Virus record (IMG/VR): IMGVR_UViG_3300032431_000007
Span: 1,506-65,505 of that record
Strand: one strand, 5' to 3'
Length of the DNA stretch: 64,000 nt
Origin: a virus
Taxonomy: Duplodnaviria; Caudoviricetes
Below, in pieces: positions 1 through 64,000 of this stretch. The notes beneath the pieces are model-generated. The model had not been told where the DNA came from, searched no databases, and was given only the letters and a program-made list of their open reading frames with translations. Position 1 is the stretch's first letter. The number at the start of each line of letters is the position of its first letter. A program made the position numbers and the translations under genes.

Positions 1-964
1 CTACATTCTCGACAAGAACGTAAACGGGCGTGTTCACTGCTCATTCCACCCGCTGCGTGGACTAGGATCGGGCACAAGATCGGGCCGCTTTTCTAGTTCA
101 GATCCAAATCTTCAAAACATCCCGGTGCGAACAGAAATCGGTAAAAAAGTTCGTAGGGCGTTCGGTAAGAAAGGTGTTCTTTGGATTAAGTTTGACTACA
201 GCCAGATCGAATACCGGATGCTTGCTCACCATGCGGTTGGCCCCGGAAGCGATGAGCTACGGTGGCGCTATAATAATGACCCCGATCTTGATTATCATAT
301 TTTCACACAAGATTTGATTAGACTTAAGACTGGTATTGAACTAGAGCGCCGCCCGGTTAAAAACATTAACTTTGGCCTGATTTATGGTATGGGAAAGAAA
401 AAGCTTATCGCCGATCTAATTAAGTTTAGCGGCGGCGGTAAAGTTGATAAGCAAACAGGGGAACTTATGTATAGCAGCTATCACGAAGCTGTTCCGTTTG
501 CTAAAGCTACGATGGATGCCGCAGCAAACGAAGTGCATCGGACAGGCTACGTTGAAACAATACTTGGCCGTAAATCTGATTTTAACGGTTGGACATCAAA
601 GCAGTATGAAGCTGGCCGGCTGTCGCTTTCTTTCGAGGCCGCTTCGTCTAAGTGGGGCGCATACAATATCGAGCGCAGTCACACGCACAAGGCATTGAAT
701 CGTAAGTTACAAGGCGGTGCCGCAGACGTTATGAAAAAGGCAATGGTAGAAGCATACGAAGCTGGACTCTTTGCTGATGATGCTTGCGGTATACCCTGCC
801 TAACTGTTCATGATGAGCTTGATTTTGACTATGAAAACGGAGTTGACTTGTCGGCCCCGTGTTGGACAGAGTTTAAGAATCTTATGGAAACGGCAATGCC
901 AGGACTGTTAGTCCCGGTTCGGATGGACGGCAGCTTCGGGCCTAATTGGGGTTCAATAGATTAA
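1..964 (+). CDS. polA: Family A DNA polymerase, C-terminal part (5' end outside window)
   Basis: Frame is open from base 2 (…TRSGRFSSSDPNLQNIP). Motif A DYSQIEYR, motif B KNINFGLIYG, motif C VHDE. Confidence 0.95.
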   Translation, partial: YILDKNVNGRVHCSFHPLRGLGSGTRSGRFSSSDPNLQNIPVRTEIGKKVRRAFGKKGVLWIKFDYSQIEYRMLAHHAVGPGSDELRWRYNNDPDLDYHIFTQDLIRLKTGIELERRPVKNINFGLIYGMGKKKLIADLIKFSGGGKVDKQTGELMYSSYHEAVPFAKATMDAAANEVHRTGYVETILGRKSDFNGWTSKQYEAGRLSLSFEAASSKWGAYNIERSHTHKALNRKLQGGAADVMKKAMVEAYEAGLFADDACGIPCLTVHDELDFDYENGVDLSAPCWTEFKNLMETAMPGLLVPVRMDGSFGPNWGSID

Positions 965-967
965 GCC

Positions 968-996
968 TTGACCGGCGCGCGCCGTTGTGCTAGGTT
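968..996 (+). promoter_or_regulatory. sigma70-type promoter
   Basis: TTGACC-17 bp-TAGGTT in an intergenic position; the same architecture recurs elsewhere. Confidence 0.6.
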
Positions 997-1060
997 AACA
1001 CACGGGCAGCGCGCGGATAAAGAACGTGAATCAAGCGCTGGCTTTATAGGAGCGAAACTG

Positions 1061-1165
1061 ATGACACTGATCTTTAACGGGCAAGCACTCTCGACACTGC
1101 CCCCGGAGCAAGCGCAGCGCGCCCTGCTGGAACTCATCGCTTACATGAACGGAGCAAAGTCGTGA
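1061..1165 (+). CDS. small hypothetical protein
   Basis: AGGAG RBS, ATG at 1061, stop overlaps the next start. Confidence 0.45.
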   Translation: MTLIFNGQALSTLPPEQAQRALLELIAYMNGAKS

Positions 1166-1560
1166 ATACCGAGCGCCTTAATGGGATACTGAACTGGCTG
1201 GAGTCCGCGGAAGAAGCGCTGCTCTTTAATATGGGCACCTTTACTTTTGTTCCGAATACGGCAAAAGCTGAGAACAACTGGTGCGGGACATCTTGCTGCC
1301 TCGCAGGTTATACGGTGATAACTTACGGAGATTTTGTTCCTGGAAATACAGTGATACACGTCTTTGAAGACGCGTGGAAGCTGCTCGAATTGACCTACGC
1401 GGAGGCGCGGGCTTTGTTCTATTGCAAAAGTCTTGCTGGCCGCGACCTTTGGCTCACCTTCGATGGCATCACTCGGTCGCAAGCGGCGCAGGCGGTTAGG
1501 AATCTTATTGATTGCGGCGATCCGAAATGGGAGGTTATTTGTGCTTACCCCTTTCCTTAA
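1162..1560 (+). CDS. hypothetical protein, CGTxxCxAG family (paralog of 45859 and 47053)
   Basis: FNM…CGTSCCLAG motif shared with two other ORFs. Confidence 0.75.
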   Translation: MNTERLNGILNWLESAEEALLFNMGTFTFVPNTAKAENNWCGTSCCLAGYTVITYGDFVPGNTVIHVFEDAWKLLELTYAEARALFYCKSLAGRDLWLTFDGITRSQAAQAVRNLIDCGDPKWEVICAYPFP

Positions 1561-1673
1561 CATAAAAGAGGGCTGGATTTACTACAAAATCCGCCAGCAA
1601 GACGGCACGTTCCAGATCATGGAATGTGTAGATACGATCAGCAACCGCCTCTTTGTTGAATGGGTCCAAATCC

Positions 1674-1928
1674 ATGACTAAACTTCATCCTGACTTTGCA
1701 GCATTTATCATTAACTACGCAAAGAAGAAAGAAGAAGAGCGTAAGGAAAAGGCGTTAGGACCGGCGCTGTTTGTTAATCTTAGGAACGGCGGCAACCTAC
1801 ACAAGCGCCCAGCCTGCGATCTGTGGTTCGTCTTGTTGGCCACCGTGTTCTGGTTGGCGCTTATGGCTATTCCCGCCATTCTGGCTATTCTAGCAGGGAT
1901 GGGAGTTATGACGTGGCTCTTATCTTGA
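1674..1928 (+). CDS. small membrane protein
   Basis: Long hydrophobic C-terminal segment; tightly packed in the operon. Confidence 0.55.
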   Translation: MTKLHPDFAAFIINYAKKKEEERKEKALGPALFVNLRNGGNLHKRPACDLWFVLLATVFWLALMAIPAILAILAGMGVMTWLLS

Positions 1929-2191
1929 TACCGATCGTTATTCGCGGTGTTCATTACGAGTCGCAAGCCGCAGCGGCCCGCGCGTTTAATGTTTCGCACG
2001 TTACTATTACACGGGCAGTTAATCGAGGTACGCAAGATAGAATTGGTTTAGGGACCGGCAAGCGGCCTATAGTTTGGGACGGCGTTGAATACAGCAGTAT
2101 TATAGACGCCGCCCGCGCGGCTGGATTGACTCGCCATAAGTTTAGGATTCTCAGAGACAGTATCGACAAACAGAAAAAGGACACCAAATGA
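1913..2191 (+). CDS. NUMOD1-like tandem HTH DNA-binding protein
   Basis: Repeats IRGVHYESQAAAARAFNVS and WDGVEYSSIIDAARAAGLT; GGGAG RBS before GTG 1913. Confidence 0.65.
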   Translation: MALILIPIVIRGVHYESQAAAARAFNVSHVTITRAVNRGTQDRIGLGTGKRPIVWDGVEYSSIIDAARAAGLTRHKFRILRDSIDKQKKDTK

Positions 2192-3114
2192 AACCGATGC
2201 TAGCTAGTGATTGGGATGAAGACAAGCAGTCATACCCTGTCTTGCTCCAACCGAAGATCGACGGCGTTCGCGCGCTTAACCTGTCAGGTCGATTGACAGG
2301 CCGCAGCCTGAAAGAGTTTAACAACGTCTACATCACCGAAAAGTTTAGCATACCAGAGTATGTTGGCTTTGACGGTGAGATGGCGGCGGAGAAAGAAACG
2401 CACCCGGACCTTTGCCGCTTGACCACAAGCGCGCTAGGGACCATCGCAGGCGCCCCGCGCGTGGTCTGGCATGTCTTTGACCTTGTGACCCCTGCAACCG
2501 CTGGCCAGCCTTATGCGGCCCGGTGGCGGGCAATGTTTGATAAGGTCGCGGGCTTGCCGCCCGATCTTGCCGCCTGTCTGCATGTCGTTCCACAGATCAA
2601 GTGCGACAGAAAAGCTGATGTTGAACAAAACGACGAGAACCTACTCGTGCTTGGCTACGAAGGGACCATTCTTCGCGCACCCGGCGGCGTTTACAAACAC
2701 GGACGAAGCACAGTCCGCGAGGGCGGTCTACTTCGAATTAAACGCTTTAATGATTCGGAGGGCGTAGTCGTCTCCATCCAAGAAGGCCAGACAAACAATA
2801 ATGAGGCCAAGATCAACGAACTTGGTCATACCGAGCGCAGCAGTCACCAAGAAAATATGTCACCTAACGGCATGATCGGAACGCTATCCGTTAAGCTACT
2901 ATCCGATATTACGTTCGGAGAAAAGACGCTGCACAAGGGCGAAGTCGTAACGATCGGCGCGGGAAGACTAACCGCGCAGGAACGTGAAGACTACTGGAAC
3001 TATCCAAACACGATCTTGCAGCGGATCGTTAAGTTCCAATACTTTCCTAAGGGCGTAAAGGAGAAACTGCGCTTCCCGACCTTTCAAAGCTTCCGCAGCA
3101 GTGTGGATATGTAA
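2188..3114 (+). CDS. ATP-dependent DNA ligase
   Basis: Motif I PKIDGVR, FDGE, VFDL, EGTILR, and a C-terminal OB fold ending LRFPTF. Confidence 0.93.
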   Translation: MKPMLASDWDEDKQSYPVLLQPKIDGVRALNLSGRLTGRSLKEFNNVYITEKFSIPEYVGFDGEMAAEKETHPDLCRLTTSALGTIAGAPRVVWHVFDLVTPATAGQPYAARWRAMFDKVAGLPPDLAACLHVVPQIKCDRKADVEQNDENLLVLGYEGTILRAPGGVYKHGRSTVREGGLLRIKRFNDSEGVVVSIQEGQTNNNEAKINELGHTERSSHQENMSPNGMIGTLSVKLLSDITFGEKTLHKGEVVTIGAGRLTAQEREDYWNYPNTILQRIVKFQYFPKGVKEKLRFPTFQSFRSSVDM

Positions 3115-3129
3115 ACCCAGGAGACTAAA

Positions 3130-3465
3130 ATGCTTAAGAACTTGATGCTTACTGCCGCGCTCTTGACAACGGCGGCCACCGCTTCGGCGGAAGTGACTAT
3201 GGACGATCAGAGCGTTGCGGACATGATGACGATTATCGCGCTCGTCGGGGAATTCTGCAGTTTTGATTTGAGTGAGGAAGCCGACACCCTTCTCGTTGAC
3301 TTCTTTGCTCATCTGTCGAGCAAGTATCCTGAGACGGACATTGGCGATGCTATCGCGGTGTCTGGAAGGATGGTCATAGAGCAGCGTAACGCGGCGGTAA
3401 GTGAAGAAGCTTGGTGTGCAGAAAAGCTGTTGCTCGGTCCTGAATACTGGAGCGAAGCAAACTGA
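3130..3465 (+). CDS. exported hypothetical protein
   Basis: Signal peptide MLKNLMLTAALLTTAATASA; strong RBS. Confidence 0.7.
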   Translation: MLKNLMLTAALLTTAATASAEVTMDDQSVADMMTIIALVGEFCSFDLSEEADTLLVDFFAHLSSKYPETDIGDAIAVSGRMVIEQRNAAVSEEAWCAEKLLLGPEYWSEAN

Positions 3466-3466
3466 G

Positions 3467-3781
3467 ATGTCACACTTTTCGTTCGCCCAAGCTATCACAA
3501 GGAAACTACAGGTGATCTCAGATCAAGAGCTAAAAGCTACTACACTTACTGATCTTGAAATTGTGCATCAGTATCGAGGATCAACAGACCCGGCAGTTTT
3601 GCAACTAAGCAACCGACTCGTCAAGAATCATTATGAGACGGAACTGTTGCGCGATGAAGCGGAAGACGCCGCTGGTTTTCAACGGCGTATTAACCAACTT
3701 GAACACGAGTTAAATAAAGAAGAAACGGAGCACGTCGCAACCAAGAAAGAGTTAGAATCCTATAGGAGGGTTTACGGATGA
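3467..3781 (+). CDS. hypothetical coiled-coil protein
   Basis: ATG 2 nt after the upstream stop; C-terminal heptads. Confidence 0.6.
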   Translation: MSHFSFAQAITRKLQVISDQELKATTLTDLEIVHQYRGSTDPAVLQLSNRLVKNHYETELLRDEAEDAAGFQRRINQLEHELNKEETEHVATKKELESYRRVYG

Positions 3782-3849
3782 AAGATGTTGTTGTAATAGT
3801 TCTGTGCGCGGTGATCTTACTTTTACTCGGCCAATGTCTAATACCCTGA
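3778..3849 (+). CDS. 23-aa membrane peptide
   Basis: GGAGG RBS, ATGA overlap, MKDVVVIVLCAVILLLLGQCLIP. Confidence 0.45.
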   Translation: MKDVVVIVLCAVILLLLGQCLIP

Positions 3850-3877
3850 AATCGCCAGCTACAGAAGGAAACTATAG

Positions 3878-4378
3878 ATGCCTATCACCGACGAGCAACT
3901 TAGAGCAGAGTGCGCGGCAGGGGCTTCCCGCCCACAGATTGCGGTTAAGTACGGGGTGTCTGTTCAGACAATCTACGGCAGGGGCAGAAAACTAGGTCTA
4001 AAGTTCGTCTCTTATTGGACAACGGCGGAAGGCCGCGCGCGAAGAGGTGTACTGACTAAAGCACTCTTTGCTGACCCCGAAGAAAAGATTATACGGATGG
4101 CGCAACTAACAGCGGGGAAAATGAAACCCGGGAAAAAAGCTGCGGCCAAAGACAGGTATGAGAAAGAGAAAAATAAGTATCTCAAGTTGCTGTCACCTAT
4201 TGAGATGAAAGATTACCTCAACTTACATAAGATGGGGATGAGCAACTCAAACGCGTTTATTATGATGGCTCGACCGGACGTTGCCAAAGTCTGGGAATCG
4301 ACACGACGCGGAAAACTAGAGGTTAAAAAAGCGGCTGAGCGTTTGGATAAAAAAAGCCAGCCCCGAGAGGCTGGCTAA
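3878..4378 (+). CDS. HTH-containing hypothetical protein
   Basis: N-terminal SRPQIAVKYGVSVQTIY HTH pattern. Confidence 0.65.
   Translation: MPITDEQLRAECAAGASRPQIAVKYGVSVQTIYGRGRKLGLKFVSYWTTAEGRARRGVLTKALFADPEEKIIRMAQLTAGKMKPGKKAAAKDRYEKEKNKYLKLLSPIEMKDYLNLHKMGMSNSNAFIMMARPDVAKVWESTRRGKLEVKKAAERLDKKSQPREAG
4349..4376 (-). terminator. intrinsic terminator between convergent operons
   Basis: AGCCAGCC-6-GGCTGGCT stem with an A-run on + (U-tract on -). Confidence 0.65.
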
Positions 4379-35081: not shown

Positions 35082-35351
35082 TTATTCGCCGTGGTACTGC
35101 CACAGCACAGCGTTGCAGTAAGCATGAACGGCACCGATGGTTAAGCCTGTCTTGTGGCTATGATGCAAGTGGACGGGGTTCTTCAAAAACCCCGGCGGAA
35201 ACTTACTCCACACTATCTTTTTGTTTTGCACAGGGGTCTCGTATACACCGATTCCACAGTGACAGCATTTCCCAGCTTGGGAAGCTACATAAGCGTTACG
35301 AACCCTACGCCGCTCTTCCGGAGTTAGACTGTCGTATAAAACGGGTTGCAC
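35082..35351 (-). CDS. endonuclease VII-like / HNH Zn-finger protein
   Basis: QAGKCCHC…VHLHHSHKTG…GAVHAYCN. Confidence 0.75.
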   Translation of the reverse strand: MQPVLYDSLTPEERRRVRNAYVASQAGKCCHCGIGVYETPVQNKKIVWSKFPPGFLKNPVHLHHSHKTGLTIGAVHAYCNAVLWQYHGE

Positions 35352-35378
35352 CTTGTTTCTCCTTGTTGCCCTGTCACT

Positions 35379-35420
35379 ACCTTAACAGCCCTTGCACCCG
35401 GTGTCAAGACGTGCTAGGAT
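35379..35420. promoter_or_regulatory. overlapping divergent sigma70-type promoters
   Basis: (+) TTGCAC-17-TAGGAT at 35392-35420; (-) TTGACA-17-TAAGGT at 35407-35379. Confidence 0.6.
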
Positions 35421-35446
35421 AGGGCAGGCAGCAGGGATAAACCAGA

Positions 35447-35863
35447 ATGACGTTTGGTGCGAAGCAGAAGGGAGCTAACGGCGAACGTGAGCTTGCCGTA
35501 CTTTTGATGGTATGGGCACGAGAGATCGGTGTCGAGTTGGACTTACTGCGCAATCTAGAGCAGGTCCGTTCCGGTGGCCACGACCTAATCGGTCTTCCAG
35601 GGTTGGCCACCGAATGTAAGCGGGTTGAAGGCTTAGCCGTGGCCGAGTGGTGGCGTCAAACCGTCTCACAAGCCGAGCGAGCAGGCGCGCGCCCCTTTCT
35701 ATGCTACAGACAGAACCGTAAGCGGTGGAAATTCGTAACTAAGACATGGGTGTGGCCGGCCTCCGTTTGTGAGATCGTCGTCACAATGGACGAACCAGAA
35801 GCCCGGCTTTGGTTTCACGGCCATTTAATCAACGAAGAACGCAAAAGAATCGAAGGCGGATAA
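35447..35863 (+). CDS. Holliday junction resolvase-like PD-(D/E)xK nuclease
   Basis: KQKGANGERE…GGHDL…ECKR. Confidence 0.8.
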   Translation: MTFGAKQKGANGERELAVLLMVWAREIGVELDLLRNLEQVRSGGHDLIGLPGLATECKRVEGLAVAEWWRQTVSQAERAGARPFLCYRQNRKRWKFVTKTWVWPASVCEIVVTMDEPEARLWFHGHLINEERKRIEGG

Positions 35864-36346
35864 TTCGGCGTTTACAGGCGTTTTACCTATGCTTTCAGTC
35901 ATAATTGACTAGAATCCGGCGATTATGGCCAAAATTCTAAAAACGCTAAATCCAGATATTTGATATTTTGAAATCCAGAGTTTTGAAATGTTTAAGTCAG
36001 GCTTGACTAGAGCCCTGTTTATTCTAGAAGTGAGTTATTTTTGAAAATATAAAATGTTGCAAGAGGCCATGCCGCCCGCGTTTTTCGACACCCCGCCTCA
36101 CAAAATTGCCCCGGCACCCCTGAATTCGTAATTTTATTGCGCGCAGCATTTTTGCAACGGTTCGTGGCCTTTCTGCAACTGTGATCTTTTTGCCGACTCG
36201 AATGATCGGCGGCGTTCGACATATTTGCAACGTGTTCTTTTTGCCACAGTTCGTGGCAATTCAGCAACGCGACAAATATACCACGGTTCGTGGCATATCG
36301 GTAACGTGTTATTTCGGTAACAGTCACCACGTAATTTTCTTGCGTT

Positions 36347-36422
36347 GTTATCTGATAACAAATCTCTGTTATCTGATAACCGTCCGGTGTTATCTGATAA
36401 CCGTCTTCGGTTATCTGATAAC
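36347..36422. repeat. four phased palindromes GTTATC-T-GATAAC with 21-bp period
   Basis: Copies start at 36347, 36368, 36389 and 36410. Confidence 0.95.
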
Positions 36423-36780
36423 CATGCGCTGACGTCATGGCTCCCATGCACGGCACGCCACAGCGTCCAGCGCGTACCTAATCCGTTCTAAAACGTTTTA
36501 GCTATGCGTCCGGCGCCGCTACCGCTGGCAACGCATAGGCGGGTCGCTGACGGGCCGGTTGCCGGGCCGTCACTCGGACCCGTAAAAACCCGACTTGCCA
36601 GTTGCACATTTTTTAGGCAAACGACTCCCAAAAGGCAAACAGATATTTTTGATCTAAACGACAAACTAGATGATTTTGACCTTGTAACCGGGCCGGATAA
36701 GTTTACTTAGGATGCATGGGCAGTGCGATAGCTTTGTCCAAAACCCGGCCAAACTGGCCACAACCAAGGATCAAGACAAG

Positions 36781-37443
36781 ATGACACGCAAGACAACCAA
36801 TCCCGCCGACACGCTGGCCACGCTGGCCGATGACACGCTGGCCACGCTGGCCACAATGGCGACCGATCCGGCAACCGATCTGGCAACCGATGACGTGACC
36901 GATCCGGTGGCCGATGACGTGACCGGCGACGATGACGTGACCGGCGACGATGCAACCGGCGACGATGCAACCGATCCGGTGGCCGATGACGTGCTGCCGA
37001 TTATCCCGCCCGTACCGCAAGACTTGACCGATACAGTCGCGGTCAAGGCATACATCGCGGCAGTCAAGGCACGGGCCGATATGGTCAAGGCGATTGCCAA
37101 ACGTGACCGGGACAATGCGGCAGCGCTGGCCAAGCTTGCCCAGCAAGCCCGGCGTGACGCTGGCCGGGGCAATGGCTTGCTTGCTGCACTGGCCAAGGCG
37201 CAAGCTGCCGATGCAAAAGTGCAAGCCGATGCAACCGCCCTGCGCGATGCAATCCCGGTCTTTGCCGGGCTGTTTGACGCTGCCGGTGGCAATCTGCCGC
37301 GCGGTACTTGCAAGGCGTTGCGGATCGTTGCGCATGATTTTGTCGCGCTGGGCTTGTCGCGCGGTCTGTTTGTCAAAGCTGCCGCGATGTCGGGGATTGA
37401 TACGACGACTGCCGGTTGCCAATGGGCAGCATCCGGCGTCTGA
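36781..37443 (+). CDS. early protein with Asp/Thr repeat N-terminus, Ala-rich helix and SGIxxxTxxxQW C-terminal domain; contains no Glu
   Basis: AAGGA RBS; DDVTG/ATDP repeats; C-terminus similar to 60006-60680. Confidence 0.75.
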   Translation: MTRKTTNPADTLATLADDTLATLATMATDPATDLATDDVTDPVADDVTGDDDVTGDDATGDDATDPVADDVLPIIPPVPQDLTDTVAVKAYIAAVKARADMVKAIAKRDRDNAAALAKLAQQARRDAGRGNGLLAALAKAQAADAKVQADATALRDAIPVFAGLFDAAGGNLPRGTCKALRIVAHDFVALGLSRGLFVKAAAMSGIDTTTAGCQWAASGV

Positions 37444-37453
37444 TTGCAGGTAG

Positions 37454-37477
37454 CAGGCTGGCCGATAGGCCAGCCTG
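37454..37477 (+). terminator. intergenic stem-loop
   Basis: CAGGCTGGCC-GATA-GGCCAGCCTG; no U-tract. Confidence 0.5.
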
Positions 37478-37510
37478 TCAACGTGCAATCCCGCGCGCCA
37501 AGGATATACA

Positions 37511-37825
37511 ATGCCTGATCCCCTACTGTTTGCGTTTAACACGATTGATCCCGCAACCGTTGCAAGTAGGATTGCAGATCGGTTTAGCGCTGATCCAAAT
37601 GGCAATTGCGACTGCGCGCAATTGGTGCGCCGCATGGTAACGGATCATTTGTTTGACGATGATGTAAACTGCAATCTGCATTTGTCAGACAATGGCGCCG
37701 CATTGTATCGCCAAACGTTTTTGACGTTTGACGATATCAAAGATTATTTGGTCAATACATATCGGCCAGATATGGGCAATGCCGATATCGCCGGGCCGGT
37801 TATGGTTGCGGTATTGTGCGTCTGA
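37511..37825 (+). CDS. early hypothetical protein, contains no Glu
   Basis: AAGGA RBS; 104 aa, Asp-rich. Confidence 0.7.
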   Translation: MPDPLLFAFNTIDPATVASRIADRFSADPNGNCDCAQLVRRMVTDHLFDDDVNCNLHLSDNGAALYRQTFLTFDDIKDYLVNTYRPDMGNADIAGPVMVAVLCV

Positions 37826-37849
37826 TTGCATCCCCTTGTCAGACTATCC

Positions 37850-37872
37850 AAGGCGCACCAATGGTGCGCCTT
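37850..37872 (+). terminator. stem-loop closing the GAR-free cassette
   Basis: AAGGCGCACC-AAT-GGTGCGCCTT. Confidence 0.5.
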
Positions 37873-37883
37873 AAGTCGTTTGG

Positions 37884-38264
37884 GCTGGCCGGTTGCCGCT
37901 GGCCGGTTGCCGGTTGTTCTGGCCGGTTGCTGGCCGGTTGCCGGTGGCCGGGCTGGATCGGTGGCCGGTGGCCGGTTGCTGGCCGGGCTTGCCGGTTGCT
38001 GGGCTTGCTGGCCGGATCGGATCGGATCGGATCGGATCGTTCGACAGGATTGTCAGACAATCTTGTTCGGCAGGATCGTCAGACGATTGCGTTCGGCACA
38101 ACCGTTCGGCAGGATCGTTCGGCAGGATCGGTGCCGGTTGCCGGGCCGGTGCCGGGCCGGTGCCGGATCGGTTGCCGCTGCCGCTGGCCGGTTGCTGGCC
38201 GGTTGCTGGCCGGGCCGGGCTTGTCCTTGTCCTTGTCCTTGTCCTTGTCCTTGTCCTTGTCCTT
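37884..38264. repeat. simple-repeat tract: many GCCGGT(T/G), (GGATC)5, (CTTGTC)7
   Basis: (GGATC)5 at 38014-38038; (CTTGTC)7 at 38220-38261. Confidence 0.9.
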
Positions 38265-38281
38265 AACAAAAGGTTCGATCA

Positions 38282-38458
38282 ATGCCACAAGTTCCGATAA
38301 CCATCGCGGCCCTGTCCTTGCTCGCTACGCTGGCCACCGTGTCCGGCGCCTTCGACCCGGCCCCGTCCTTCGACTGCCTGTCCTTGTCCTTCGAGTCCTA
38401 TCTGTCCTTGGATAAGTTCGAACGTGACGCCTGCGAAGTTTACCTCGAAACCCGCTAG
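38282..38458 (+). CDS. 58-aa putative exported peptide
   Basis: Not in the ORF track; MPQVPITIAALSLLATLATVSGA signal-like N-terminus; two Cys. Confidence 0.5.
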   Translation: MPQVPITIAALSLLATLATVSGAFDPAPSFDCLSLSFESYLSLDKFERDACEVYLETR

Positions 38459-38485
38459 TCCTAGCGCCAACAAAGGAATACCCTA

Positions 38486-38683
38486 ATGTCCACGAAAATG
38501 TATCGCGCACAGATCGTCGCGCACCACGACTTCGGCAATGTCCGTTACCAGTCGTTCCATCTGTCCTTGGACGGGGCTTGGAACGCCTGCGCGGCAGCGC
38601 TGGCCGAGGCGAAGGCCAAGGAAGAACCCGAATGGCACTATTACCTCGACCAGACCGTAACCCCGATGACATTGGAAGCGTGA
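38486..38683 (+). CDS. early hypothetical protein
   Basis: AAGGA RBS. Confidence 0.6.
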   Translation: MSTKMYRAQIVAHHDFGNVRYQSFHLSLDGAWNACAAALAEAKAKEEPEWHYYLDQTVTPMTLEA

Positions 38684-38684
38684 T

Positions 38685-38873
38685 ATGGAAACCCTGCACC
38701 AAGAACTTGACGGCATGACGACCTACTGGCTGAAAATGCCGCGCGGTCAGAACGAAATAGACTTTTTGAAGCGGATCTGCATGGTCGCTGATCTGACCGA
38801 ACTGACCATCCCGATGATCCAGACGGAAGGCTGGTCCTTGGACATGAAACTAGGCCGGTGCTGCGCCAGATAG
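38685..38873 (+). CDS. early hypothetical protein
   Basis: Coupled to the previous gene. Confidence 0.55.
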   Translation: METLHQELDGMTTYWLKMPRGQNEIDFLKRICMVADLTELTIPMIQTEGWSLDMKLGRCCAR

Positions 38874-38936
38874 GTCGAAACCGGCGCAAGCCGGTCCATC
38901 CGTTGAGCGGATGCTGACGAGACCAAGGAGACGGAA

Positions 38937-39128
38937 ATGAACCTTAAGGACTTTAAGCCCAAGCCGGTGCAAGGCTTGTATTCGTACGACCACTTCGAAG
39001 GTCCTGACGGGGCCTTTATCCAGAGCCATCATTCCGGCGACCATTGGGTGTTCCAAGCGCCGGACGGGTCGCGCAAGACGTTCTATCAGTTCGGGCCTCT
39101 GAAGGCCCATGTGGAGGCAATCCAATGA
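38937..39128 (+). CDS. early hypothetical protein
   Basis: AAGGAG RBS. Confidence 0.65.
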   Translation: MNLKDFKPKPVQGLYSYDHFEGPDGAFIQSHHSGDHWVFQAPDGSRKTFYQFGPLKAHVEAIQ

Positions 39129-60777: not shown

Positions 60778-61503
60778 ATGTTGAATACACAACCTATCGC
60801 GAAGCCAGCTTCTGGCGACGGAAGACAGCTTGTCGTCCATTCTATATTCCACACAATCCAAGGTGAGGGGCCGTTCTGCGGCAGACCCGCCGTCTTCGTG
60901 CGCCTGTCGGATTGCAACCTGACTTGTCCACTCTGCGATACGGAATACACTTCCATCCGCATGACAATGACGCCGGTTGAAATCTTCAAGATCATCTCCC
61001 GAACCTTTATACAGGACGGTGGCCTAGTCGTGCTGACTGGCGGCGAGCCGTTCCGACAGCCCGTTGGGATGCTTCTGCGGGCGTTGACCTCGGAGGGGTT
61101 TGCCGTCCAGATCGAGACGAACGGAACGCTGCCCCCGCAAGACTTCATCTACGAGCGCGATCTTATGGGAAGCCCGATGCCGGGGTGCGCTTACATCGTG
61201 TGCAGCCCGAAGACCGGCAAGATAAATCCTGAAACCTTGATGCAGACTTGCGCGCTTAAGTATGTCGCCCGTGCGGATGACCTTGAGGAAGATGACGGGC
61301 TTCCCCGGACGGCGCTCGGACATAGCGCCCATCCCAGACTTGCGCGGCCTCCGTTGTTTTGGCGGCGTCCGGTATACCTCCAGCCTGCCGATGAGCAGGA
61401 CGAGGTTAAGAACCGCGCTAACCGTCTGGCAGTTGCCAAATCCTGTATGCAGTTCGGCTACACGATCCAACTACAGACCCACAAACTCCTAGAACTTGAA
61501 TAA
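60778..61503 (+). CDS. queE: 7-carboxy-7-deazaguanine synthase (radical SAM)
   Basis: TIQGEG, CNLTCPLCDT, TGGEP, ETNG, CSPK, LQTHK. Confidence 0.95.
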   Translation: MLNTQPIAKPASGDGRQLVVHSIFHTIQGEGPFCGRPAVFVRLSDCNLTCPLCDTEYTSIRMTMTPVEIFKIISRTFIQDGGLVVLTGGEPFRQPVGMLLRALTSEGFAVQIETNGTLPPQDFIYERDLMGSPMPGCAYIVCSPKTGKINPETLMQTCALKYVARADDLEEDDGLPRTALGHSAHPRLARPPLFWRRPVYLQPADEQDEVKNRANRLAVAKSCMQFGYTIQLQTHKLLELE

Positions 61504-61515
61504 CGAGGGCAACCA

Positions 61516-62280
61516 ATGGCGGCGAGAAATAATGACGCTTGCGTAGTCGTGCTATCCGGCGGGCAAGACTCGACAACGTGCCTATTCTGGGCAAAAGAAT
61601 TCTACAGCGAGGTCCATGCGGTCACGTTCGACTATGGGCAGCGCCATTCGATCGAGATTGACGCCGCGTTCATCGTCGGTCAAATGGCGGGCGTTGCATC
61701 GCATAAGCTGATAAAGCTCGGTAACATTTTGGAGGGGACAAGCCCGTTGGTTAGCGATGCTCCGCTGGAGCAGTACGCGGATCACCAGTCCCTTCCCGGC
61801 GGTCTTGAAAAGACCTTCGTCCCGATGCGCAATCAGTTGTTCCTTACGGTGGCCGCGAACCGCGCCTACTGTCTTGGAATATCAAATCTGGTGACAGGCG
61901 TCTGCCAAGAAGACAGCGGCGGTTATCCAGATTGTCGGCGGGACTTTATCGAATCGCTGGAAAAGACCAGTCGCATGGGAACATTTACCGGCGAGGACGA
62001 AACACTTCCCTATCTCTACATTATCACGCCGCTGATGTATCTGACAAAAGCCCAAAGCGTTCACATGGCGTTTGCGAACCCAAGGTGCTGGGAGGCGCTG
62101 GCCTATACGCACACCTCCTACGATGGAAAGTATCCGCCGACCGGCCACGATCATGCAACGCTTCTAAGGGCTAAGGGCTTTGAAGAAGCAGGTCGGCCTG
62201 ATCCGCTTGTTCTGCGCGCTTGGCGCCAAGGCGTGATGGACCTCCCGGGAACGGCTAACTATGCGGGGTGCGCGCTTTGA
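61516..62280 (+). CDS. queC: 7-cyano-7-deazaguanine synthase
   Basis: SGGQDSTT, FDYGQRH, VPMRN, YPDCR. Confidence 0.95.
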   Translation: MAARNNDACVVVLSGGQDSTTCLFWAKEFYSEVHAVTFDYGQRHSIEIDAAFIVGQMAGVASHKLIKLGNILEGTSPLVSDAPLEQYADHQSLPGGLEKTFVPMRNQLFLTVAANRAYCLGISNLVTGVCQEDSGGYPDCRRDFIESLEKTSRMGTFTGEDETLPYLYIITPLMYLTKAQSVHMAFANPRCWEALAYTHTSYDGKYPPTGHDHATLLRAKGFEEAGRPDPLVLRAWRQGVMDLPGTANYAGCAL

Positions 62281-62729
62281 CTTATGTTTCCAGCAAGACA
62301 TTCGGCCACGACCTCGGGCTGTCGTGCTGTTTTCGGCAGTGGCGAGCCGATAGTCATTGCCGAATGCTTCACGGCTATGCGCTGGCTATCCATCTTGAGT
62401 TCGAAGCTGACACCCTAGACGACAAGAATTGGGTGGTTGACTTTGGTTCGATGAGAAGCTTAAAGGATATGTTTGGACAGCTTTTCGATCATACACTGAT
62501 CGTTGCGGAAGATGATCCAGACCTCGATACCTTTGTTGATCTTAACGACAAGAACCTTGCAAACGTTGTGTTCGTTGAGAATACAGGGTGCGAAGCGTTT
62601 GCGCGGTTGATCTTTGACATTACAGACGGATGGCTTGAGCAACAAGCTTATACGCCGCGCGTTCGTATGCGAAGCGTAACCGTAAGTGAGCACGGCGCTA
62701 ATAGCGCGACCTATGCAGGATACCCGTGA
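62268..62729 (+). CDS. queD: 6-carboxytetrahydropterin synthase
   Basis: HCRMLHGY, WVVDF, FDH. Confidence 0.9.
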   Translation: MRALTYVSSKTFGHDLGLSCCFRQWRADSHCRMLHGYALAIHLEFEADTLDDKNWVVDFGSMRSLKDMFGQLFDHTLIVAEDDPDLDTFVDLNDKNLANVVFVENTGCEAFARLIFDITDGWLEQQAYTPRVRMRSVTVSEHGANSATYAGYP

Positions 62730-63301
62730 TGCAGAATGACCGCAGGAAAGACCTCGTTACAGAGCTGCTGCATACGTTAGAAACGCAGGTGCATCACACT
62801 GGCCTCCGTGAGGGCTTGCGCGATACGCCGTCCCGCGTTGCTAAAGCTTGGGAGTTCTGGACTTCCGGTTACGACGAAAACGCGGCTGACATTCTCAAGG
62901 TGTTTGAAGATGGAGGAGAAAACTATGACCAAATGGTTATCGTCAAAGATATGCCAGTTTACTCGCACTGTGAGCACCACCTTGCTTCGATATTTGGAAC
63001 CGCAACGGTGGCCTATATCCCCGACGGAAGAATTGTGGGTCTTTCCAAGCTTTCACGGCTGGTCAACTGTCATGCTCGTAGACTCCAGGTCCAAGAAAGA
63101 CTCACCAACGACATCGCAGAAGACCTCTGGACCCACCTAAAGCCCCTCGGTGTCGGCGTGATGCTGAAGTGCCGCCATATGTGTATGGAATCTCGCGGTA
63201 TTCAGCAACAGGGGCACCATACCATCACCAACGCACTGCGCGGCGTCATGCGTTCGGATCGGGACGCCCGCGCCGAGTTTATGGCGGTCGCAAACAGTTA
63301 G
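62726..63301 (+). CDS. folE: GTP cyclohydrolase I
   Basis: TPSRV, CEHH, GLSKL, QVQERLT, HMCM. Confidence 0.96.
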   Translation: MMQNDRRKDLVTELLHTLETQVHHTGLREGLRDTPSRVAKAWEFWTSGYDENAADILKVFEDGGENYDQMVIVKDMPVYSHCEHHLASIFGTATVAYIPDGRIVGLSKLSRLVNCHARRLQVQERLTNDIAEDLWTHLKPLGVGVMLKCRHMCMESRGIQQQGHHTITNALRGVMRSDRDARAEFMAVANS

Positions 63302-63405: not shown

Positions 63406-64000
63406 GTGACACTCAAGATTTATATGGCGACAACCTTTTGGTTCGGCCTTGGTAAAGGTCAGCGTGAGTACGGTAAACTCACGGACCCTTATCTAATAGA
63501 GATTGCCGACTCTGTTCCCAATCGGCTTGAGTCTTACCATTATCTTCTTAAAGCTAGAACGCTGCCCGAGTTAAAAGCATCGGGTGAAAAAGTGTTTGTT
63601 GACTCTGGCGCATTTTCGGCTTGGACCTTGGGCGCGGTTATTGATCTTGATGAATACTGCACATTTCTGAAAGATAATGTCGATATAATTCGCTGCGAAG
63701 ATGGGATATACTTGGCCTCCGTCTTGGACGGGATTGGCGATCCGCTTCTGACTTGGCAGAACCAGATAGCTATGGAGCAGCGCGGCGTGAAGCCGCTGCC
63801 TTGCTTCCACTTTGGTGAGGACGAGCGCTACCTTGAGTGGTATATCCAGAACTATAAATACATTACAATCGGCGGCTGCGTAGGGCGCAGTTCCCAAGAC
63901 CTAATGGTTTGGCTCGATCGTATCTGGAGCCGCTACATGATGGATGCGCAGGGCAAAGCTAAACTTAAAGTTCACGGCTTTGGTATTACATCGGTTCCGA
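63406..64000 (+). CDS. dpdA: DpdA-like DNA 7-deazaguanine transglycosylase (runs off the window end)
   Basis: Translated by eye: LESYHY, VFVDSGAFSAW, VLDGIGD, PCFH, IGG, KVHGFG (TGT fold); follows the preQ0 genes. Confidence 0.85.
   Translation, partial: MTLKIYMATTFWFGLGKGQREYGKLTDPYLIEIADSVPNRLESYHYLLKARTLPELKASGEKVFVDSGAFSAWTLGAVIDLDEYCTFLKDNVDIIRCEDGIYLASVLDGIGDPLLTWQNQIAMEQRGVKPLPCFHFGEDERYLEWYIQNYKYITIGGCVGRSSQDLMVWLDRIWSRYMMDAQGKAKLKVHGFGITSVP

Follow-up and report, generated by a model that had tools for sequence, protein, structure and literature searches.

Why does a phage genome that carries GAA and GAG throughout hold one two-gene operon in which neither occurs on either strand? 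We addressed this question in a 64,000-nucleotide (nt) stretch of DNA, hereafter the window, which comprises bases 1506-65505 of the 65,505-nt linear IMG/VR record IMGVR_UViG_3300032431_000007 (G000), estimated to be 94% complete. Here, GAR stands for GAA or GAG, YTC for TTC or CTC, GAY for GAT or GAC, and RTC for GAY on the bottom strand. A gap scan of the window gave two nested intervals:

36626-37916, both strands: core without GAA, GAG, TTC or CTC on either strand (gap scan and shuffles).
36201-38392, plus strand: 2192-nt zone without top-strand GAA or GAG, made up of the core, a left flank and a right flank.

The core (1291 nt) contained none of the four trinucleotides between the last CTC at 36625 and the next TTC at 37917, a gap of 1292 nt, while the second-largest gap among the 3820 GAR/YTC sites of the window was 193 nt. 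On the top strand alone, the GAR gap reached 2193 nt (36200 to 38393), and the second-largest was 350 nt. A preliminary description of this DNA had placed both gaps correctly and had put the chance expectation for the core at roughly 75-80 sites; from the rest of the window we calculated 79 (27.1 GAA, 16.0 GAG, 23.0 TTC and 13.0 CTC). Dinucleotide-preserving shuffles of the island (n=2000) contained 54.3 sites on average (standard deviation 4.8, minimum 37), and the other 60 trinucleotides occurred in the core at 0.36-2.2 times expectation. When gap length was multiplied by site density (the normalised gap), the 65,505-nt record gave 54.0 for GAA/TTC and 36.8 for GAG/CTC, with no other trinucleotide pair above 15.1; GAR and YTC combined gave 76.8. 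The motif is thus locally absent, with 0 sites in 1291 nt, and common genome-wide, with 3892 GAR/YTC sites in the whole record. Its absence is not confined to the mRNA-sense strand, as the antisense strand of the core is equally GAR-free. Outside the core the picture changed: the left flank (36201-36625) has 13 YTC and no GAR, against about 13.7 GAR expected at genome density, and the right flank (37917-38392) has 12 YTC and no GAR, against about 15.3, so that the polarity is identical on both sides and only the top strand is purged. The core retains GAY, with 81 sites on the top strand and 44 RTC. We also compared four sequencing runs as assembled contigs (Logan), and contigs of run X1 tile 36129-38079 with zero differences, indicating that the island is not an assembly chimera.

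Two open reading frames (ORFs) lie within the core:

36781-37443, plus strand: ORF1, 220 amino acids (aa), isoelectric point (pI) 4.4, no Glu; first gene of the core.
37511-37825, plus strand: ORF2, 104 aa, pI 4.2, no Glu and 15 Asp; an orphan under purifying selection.

As had been described, neither protein contains Glu, both are rich in Asp (32 residues in ORF1 and 15 in ORF2), all ten Phe codons of the pair are TTT, and AAGGAT precedes both start codons, as it also does in the two diverged metagenome contigs L030 and L031; CTC codons are absent. Six members of the two protein families together contain no Glu in 861 residues, compared with 4.6% Glu in phage reference genes. P0004, a homologue of ORF1 with 73% identity, likewise lacks Glu. 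A single distant homologue was found, P0007 (128 aa, from the related phage G003); its C-terminus is 40% identical to that of ORF1, and it contains 12 Glu and 2 Asp, indicating that the loss of Glu is derived. We then recoded the Glu-free proteins with the codon usage of the genome (2000 draws each) and obtained on average 20.5 sites for ORF1 and 10.6 for ORF2, with minima of 7 and 3. Permutation of each gene's own synonymous codons gave means of 6.9 and 3.1 sites, and the motif-free outcome appeared in 0 of 2000 permutations for ORF1 and in 2.5% for ORF2. Since synonymous permutation makes sites, the junctions between codons are policed too. These results show that selection acts on the nucleic acid and that out-of-frame sites are avoided as well. 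The preliminary description had gone further and proposed a two-stranded constraint on DNA; its nucleic-acid part stands, whereas the two-strandedness is incomplete, the flanks of about 450 nt being purged on the top strand only.

Diverged copies of the locus revealed that this selection is ongoing. Both L030 and L031 carry the ORF1 C-terminus, ORF2, a hairpin, a repeat block and a 58-aa ORF, and island copies about 84-86% identical were found in microbial-mat runs from other studies. In the core, 19% of the possible single substitutions would make a motif. L030, which differs from the window in 81 of 502 aligned columns, contains no motif, whereas 5000 simulations matched to the observed counts of transitions and transversions gave a mean of 11.7 and a minimum of 2. 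In L031, 72 of 541 columns differ, and against a simulated mean of 10.2 there are 2 motifs, namely an out-of-frame GAA inside ORF2, which arose from a synonymous change of CCA to CCG, and one CTC. The right flank is GAR-free in both contigs despite their differing repeats, and the 25 differences listed (of several hundred) for the mat strains make no motif. The ratio of non-synonymous to synonymous divergence (dN/dS) of ORF2 against L030 and L031 is 0.10-0.26 at dS 0.39-0.54, indicating that ORF2 evolves as a real protein gene. Taken together, these results show that selection on the nucleic acid keeps the motif-free state.

We then asked which agent reads GAR. The right end of the window carries the genes of a DNA modification pathway:

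60778-63301, plus strand: preQ0 synthesis genes (QueE 60778-61503, QueC 61516-62280, QueD 62268-62729, FolE 62726-63301).
63406-63999, plus strand: DpdA-type DNA guanine transglycosylase, N-terminal 198 aa (phrog_887, E 6.8e-53), cut by the record end.

The presence of this FolE/QueD/QueE/QueC/DpdA set had been noted before, and it holds, with Pfam matches of the preQ0 genes to PF01227 (7.8e-64), PF01242 (7.6e-16), PF04055 (7.9e-08) and PF06508 (2.8e-49). Over 195 aa, the DpdA fragment shows 55% identity with CAjan DpdA; neither Pfam TGT PF01702 nor any NCBIfam family matched it. The preliminary description had given GA and GGC as DpdA motifs; this is right for CAjan, whose DpdA is reported to insert preQ0 at GA and GGC (PMC7544227), while the iggy enzyme is reported to insert preQ0 strictly at GA, with EcoRV and SalI sites protected (PMC10484667). 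When candidate enzymes were compared by motif, the phage's own DpdA was the only one with a related published motif (GA), and no GAR-specific enzyme was found in the literature searched or among the other scanned ORFs of the window. The purged motif begins with GA, the sole core motif mapped for DpdA, and the phage has a CAjan-like DpdA together with preQ0 genes, which supports DpdA as the agent.

The earlier proposal that GAR is the modified motif obtained indirect support from hexamer statistics. Palindromic hexamers containing GAY were strongly avoided in G000 (28 observed against 160.7 expected, ratio 0.17; all eight words at ratios of 0.5 or below) and in the relative G001 (12 against 142.7, ratio 0.08), while those containing GAR were close to expectation in both (41 against 56.6, ratio 0.72, and 58 against 77.7, ratio 0.75). 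In G000, for example, TGATCA (0/25.5), ATCGAT (0/20.5), GTCGAC (1/21.8) and GGATCC (0/11.2) were nearly eliminated, but TTCGAA was not (22/24.6). Among the 60 most avoided hexamers, 7 contain GAR in G000 (12% versus 24% of the rest, p = 0.03) and 4 in G001 (7% versus 23%, p = 0.001); GAY words were not depleted among them. No avoidance of any GA-containing palindrome was seen in G004, and no GAR/GAY contrast in CAjan. The pattern is compatible with the G of GAR being shielded and the G of GAY not. GAY sites are avoided here, whereas the EcoRV and SalI sites of iggy are protected, which argues against a plain GA motif in this phage. Other words were avoided as well: AGGCCT (0/13.9), RGATCY words and GTAC (51/133) in G000, and GTAC (0/100.6) and AAGCTT (0/28.4) in G001; the contexts of the 51 remaining GTAC sites in G000 showed no pattern. 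Such strong avoidance of restriction-type words points to hosts that are probably rich in restriction enzymes.

We therefore regard it as the best explanation, held tentatively and with somewhat less than even confidence, that the DpdA of this clade targets GAR and that the operon has been cleared of GAR and is hence unmodified. The DpdA, a close relative of the GA-specific CAjan and iggy enzymes, would swap G for a 7-deazaguanine at G-A-purine, and an operon without GAR would offer it no target. Unmodifiable, with a clean template strand and inside a wider zone that could not be nicked on one strand, the operon would remain whole and open to transcription. The core, clean on both strands, begins upstream of ORF1 and ends shortly after the hairpin, which fits a clean template for one transcription unit, and the top strand is clean over the wider zone, so that breaks on both strands cannot coincide near the operon. 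The benefit would come when the remaining genome is under attack by a host defence that recognises 7-deazaguanine DNA, such as a Dag-type glycosylase or a modification-dependent nuclease. The glycosylases Dag1 and Dag2 are reported to degrade 7-deazaguanine phage DNA, and phages to escape them by losing DpdA function (bioRxiv 10.1101/2025.10.29.685425); absence of a motif confined to an early region can, as reported for another system, decide the outcome of infection (PMC12455610). The two acidic orphan proteins might inhibit such a defence or, equally speculatively, regulate the locus through the flanking repeats, all of which carry on the bottom strand a CGAAC that could be modifiable. The full 'safe harbour' account, in which the phage wrote its own DpdA's G-A-purine out of one operon inside a 7-deazaguanine genome, so that this operon stays permanently unmodified and beyond the reach of modified-base defences, and the Glu-free acidic proteins disarm those defences, is possible but in our view rather doubtful. 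If true, it would make the motif of the enzyme readable from sequence, and motif-free islands would reveal both modification motifs and counter-defence genes.

Several observations weigh against DpdA as the agent. If the enzyme modified every GA, as in iggy, the 81 GAY and 44 RTC of the core would be heavily modified and the explanation would fail; we know of no DpdA that reads GAR or a third base. The hexamer statistics rest on four GAR and eight GAY palindromes in two related genomes and are compatible with this agent, not decisive. The flanks keep 13 and 12 bottom-strand GAR, so the locus as a whole would not be modification-free, and L031 tolerates one GAA in ORF2, so a single site is not lethal. 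The island is also rare. It was found in none of seven records, namely the relatives G001-G005 (whole records, terminase 57-79% identical), CAjan and Synechococcus phage Yong-L2-223, two of the seven being partial; five of these (G001, G003, G004, Yong-L2-223 and CAjan) are fairly complete genomes of phages with DpdA, and G001 has the GAR/GAY hexamer signature yet no island. Nor did 81 DpdA-encoding IMG/VR loci (1.40 Mb) contain a comparable island: across 5184 tests, which covered trinucleotide pairs and classes degenerate at the third base, normalised gaps did not exceed 32.2 (328 nt), against 76.8 here. The earlier suggestion that the island's products might license expression or entry of the modified remainder of the genome can therefore not hold as a general requirement. 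A GAY-free gap of 355 nt in L042 turned out to be merely the Gln/Pro/Ala-rich tail of a DUF669-like protein.

The alternatives draw on the anatomy of the locus, whose further elements are as follows:

36142-36305, plus strand: iteron-like 38-nt repeat, three copies with core GGTTCGTGGC, in the left flank (repeat search).
36347-36422, no strand assigned: operator-like 13-nt palindrome GTTATCTGATAAC, four copies at a spacing of exactly 21 nt, in the left flank.
37850-37872, plus strand: GC-rich stem-loop, terminator-like with a weak U tract, 3' of ORF2.
37877-38264, plus strand: hypervariable repeat block of CTGGCCGGTTGC units, five GGATCG, GTTCGGCAGGATCG units and seven tandem GTCCTT (38223-38264).
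38282-38458, plus strand: ORF of 58 aa, hydrophobic at the N-terminus; its codon 38 marks the end of the top-strand zone without GAR.

A stretch of 39% G+C (35801-36000) precedes the left flank. GTTCG occurs at 36160, 36249 and 36286 within copies of the 38-nt repeat and at 36214 between copies; both flanks together hold ten GTTCG in a single orientation and no CGAAC. In the strain of run X3, one 21-nt palindrome unit is missing (window 36368). A putative promoter, TTGACC at 36676 followed by TAAGTT, was read by eye, and a scan for promoter consensus sequences returned 4 sites where 2.5 were expected, without a convincing one for the operon. The stem is present in three of three sequences, with 3 of 20 predicted pairs preserved via changes on both sides and folding z-scores of -2.5, -5.7 and -2.7; an Rfam scan of 35300-39000 found no credible family, the one match (E 0.078) lying under the gathering score. 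The repeat block varies in length and units in L030 and L031, and an X1 contig skips 38108-38265. In the bin 38214-38347, which holds the seven GTCCTT, summed contig depth was 149-2165 in all four runs, compared with tens elsewhere, and many contigs had loose ends there; the GTCCTT repeat is common to unrelated organisms in the samples of those four runs. Codon 38 of the 58-aa ORF, which encodes Glu in the window, is Ala or Gln in L030 and L031, where the first GAR lies 27 nt further on. GATC is denser in the segment 36626-38200 than anywhere else in the window, with 17-19 sites per 1300 nt where the mean is 6.3, owing partly to Asp-Pro and Asp-Leu codon pairs and partly to the GGATCG repeats; if GAT is unmodified, these sites would stay open to Dam-type methylation.

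ORF1 (pI 4.40) falls into three parts: a repetitive N-terminal section rich in Asp, Thr and Ala, with a charge of -20 across residues 1-85; a middle section rich in Lys and Ala; and a C-terminal domain that is conserved. ORF2 is compact and acidic (pI 4.24, charge -8.4). Neither belongs to a Pfam, PHROG or NCBIfam family, and no PDB sequence matched either below E 0.1. The ESM Atlas held no feature neighbours of the island proteins; for a model of the ORF1 C-terminus, its weak neighbours were viral DnaA C-terminal helix-turn-helix (HTH)-like clusters (TM 0.33-0.43). An exhaustive phmmer search with ORF2 returned one true relative, P0001, and two further hits that are short Asp-rich stretches. 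Natural populations vary in length at this locus: a 6-nt in-frame deletion in the repeat region of ORF1 (window 36828) accounts for 82.6 of 115 of the X1 contig depth. In L030, positions 1-4021 are bacterial DNA of 67% G+C, with ORFs resembling XseA (234-1700), a membrane desaturase (2086-3108) and FtsY (from 3287). The FtsY-like frame stays open up to and through the final ~25 codons of the ORF1 homologue, and phage sequence follows. The junction, near 3947, reflects either chimeric assembly or a genuine joining of phage and host DNA by which ftsY is truncated.

The strand asymmetry of the flanks brings another agent into view: a nuclease, or an enzyme of another kind, that targets GA-purine in RNA or in exposed single-stranded DNA, for example a host toxin of the mRNA-interferase type or a phage shut-off RNase. 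The message of the operon would then be uncuttable, and its products would be made while other messages are destroyed. This agent would account for the purge of the top strand, which is mRNA-sense and non-template, over 2192 nt, 900 nt beyond that of the bottom strand, and for the shared polarity of the flanks, as expected of a left-to-right process such as transcription. The AAGGAT of both ribosome-binding sites avoids GGAG and GGAA, and the total absence of the motif suggests that even one site carries a cost, as a cut would. However, the bottom strand of the core is equally clean (0 TTC/CTC against 36 expected), which would need an ad hoc antisense transcript, and the zone ends inside the 58-aa ORF, not at a transcript landmark. 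Nor did a candidate emerge: no toxin with a GAA/GAG cleavage motif was found in the literature searched, and no suitable enzyme turned up among the 25 other window ORFs scanned. The guanine ADP-ribosyltransferase DarT1 is reported to have no consensus motif (PMC11543638). We consider such an enzyme unlikely, though it deserves more attention than the alternatives that follow.

The repeats themselves would suit a replication origin, with ORF1 as an initiator-like protein, the flanks as iterons and GAR as a primase start signal excluded from the origin. Primases read template trinucleotides; the locus offers iteron-like direct repeats, four phased palindromes, the 39% G+C stretch and the densest GATC cluster, and the Atlas neighbours of the ORF1 C-terminus are DnaA HTH-like, but only at TM 0.33-0.43. 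A bidirectional origin, however, should invert the strand asymmetry, whereas both flanks are purged on the same strand, and the cumulative GC skew does not turn at the locus. No island is present in relatives that share the primase and replication module, and there is no evident benefit of blocking priming across two protein genes, so that we hold an origin to be quite improbable. Still less credible to us is avoidance of a protospacer-adjacent motif (PAM), by which the operon would become untargetable, and unsampled for spacers, by a type I CRISPR-Cas system that reads 5'-TTC and, more weakly, CTC. TTC is the PAM of type I-C and I-B systems, and the frame-independent, two-stranded constraint of the core is what a PAM read in duplex DNA would leave; however, 3892 GAR/YTC sites genome-wide would remain targetable, giving local avoidance little gain, the flanks keep 25 top-strand YTC, and GAG/CTC is purged as fully as GAA/TTC.

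Chance, low complexity or an assembly or sequencing artefact can be regarded as excluded: the repetitive 5' half of ORF1 and flanks do offer fewer independent positions, but the non-repetitive ORF2 and 3' half of ORF1 are equally clean, no shuffle fell below 37 sites, diverged copies in independent contigs from other samples and studies share the property, ORF2 is a real gene, and 5184 tests on 81 other loci reached at most 32.2 against 76.8. The remaining probability goes to an agent outside the readings listed here. Four further candidates were rejected. The footprint of a YTC-specific deaminase should enrich its products YTT and AAR, which are not enriched in the core (TTT 1.1, CTT 0.52, AAA 0.68, AAG 0.82); DarT-type motifs fail, since TNTC-type words such as TATC occur in the core and DarT1 is without a consensus; tRNA-Glu or its charging would not purge out-of-frame and antisense sites; and an insert from a GAR-free genome does not fit GAR and YTC boundaries that differ by 425 and 475 nt.

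The genomic setting of the island was also examined. The source phage is a myovirus whose genes for terminase, portal, capsid and tail sheath occupy the minus strand (~4.4-35.35 kb). The island adjoins the divergent switch at ~35.4 kb that opens the rightward block of small genes, and the first of these is its conserved left neighbour:

35447-35863, plus strand: RusA-like/PDDEXK_15 nuclease gene, first of the rightward block and present in G001-G005.

Many small ORFs follow in this plus-strand block, and further right an AAA_24 protein, a DUF669 protein, a Cas4-like exonuclease and a helicase, with QueE/QueC/QueD/FolE near the end. The record starts within a family-A DNA polymerase gene (polA) and ends within dpdA, so its ends are assembly breaks, not genome termini. 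By large terminase, the nearest cultured relatives are two Synechococcus phages of 65.6-65.7 kb (49.6% identity), which share the que-dpdA-clamp-polA module with the source phage. No tRNA genes were found in the window. Between the DNA polymerase gene and a ligase-like gene, a 122-aa ORF (1823-2191) has weak matches to NUMOD1 and I-TevI DNA-binding domains (E 1.4e-05 and 4.4e-05), which suggests a possible homing-endonuclease remnant.

Among the relatives, dpdA is present in G001-G004 and que genes in G001, G003 and G004; the G001 dpdA is complete, and its N-terminus is 73% identical. In G001, other tandem repeats occupy the syntenic place; at the end of its record stand G-rich tandem repeats (GGGCTG-type), and at the start another, different tandem array. 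Contigs of three relatives end 196-329 nt past the rusA-like gene (G001:60638-60966 and 1-240; G002:39997-40219; L012:8415-8610). As the locus breaks assemblies, related islands may be under-sampled. The 128-aa ORF1-like gene of G003 (L018:14010-14396; G003:34010-34396) lies two genes upstream of the rusA-like gene, and, with respect to the structural genes, the orientation of this pair is opposite to that in the window; G004 and G005 show the same rusA inversion. Pattern scans of viral contigs with ORF1, ORF2, the 58-aa ORF and a 62-aa ORF found no relatives, and blastn of 36000-38500 against 50,697 phage records gave no match. The locus is a repeat-rich, variable spot, and the two-gene operon is its lineage-specific tenant.

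How does this island compare with known systems? With the dPreQ0 systems of CAjan and iggy the phage shares the FolE/QueD/QueE/QueC/DpdA set, the synteny of the replication module and a motif that starts with GA. It differs in that the published motifs are GA and GGC, whereas GA-purine is purged here, and in that CAjan has no GA-free or trinucleotide-free stretch; in iggy, EcoRV and SalI sites are reported as protected, whereas this phage, known from its sequence only, strongly avoids GAY-type sites. If the agent is the phage's own DpdA, the island would be the first hint that a DpdA can read a third base and that phages keep chosen genes unmodified, and such genes would mark a counter-move to glycosylases that attack 7-deazaguanine DNA. 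If it is a host enzyme, the island points to an activity with three-base specificity not yet described.

Ugi of Bacillus phage PBS2, Ocr and ArdA are small acidic inhibitors that mimic DNA, and ORF1 and ORF2 resemble them in their small size and strong negative charge, in belonging to a phage with modification genes and in an early-looking position; the acidity of the island proteins, however, comes from Asp alone, and no similarity by family or PDB sequence links them. Genes engineered to lack ACA on one strand reportedly resist the mRNA interferase MazF. Their messages share with the island the full absence of a 3-nt motif, out-of-frame sites included, which needs both synonymous and amino-acid changes, whereas here the antisense strand is purged too. 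Plasmid leading regions reportedly carry anti-defence genes. In Murciavirus phages, motifs of Type I restriction-modification systems are reported to be depleted in the leading region (PMC12455610). As there, the motif is missing from one small, early-like region with variable small genes and is common elsewhere; the difference is that those are rare motifs of 6-8 specified bases, while here a degenerate trinucleotide with 54-79 expected copies is purged, forcing Glu-free proteins. As far as our searches go, a full purge of a degenerate trinucleotide was not found in the literature or in 1.4 Mb of related phage DNA. Compared with these systems, the island is an extreme variant of local target-motif avoidance, in which the purge was strong enough to strip an amino acid from two proteins and has held through 13-16% divergence.

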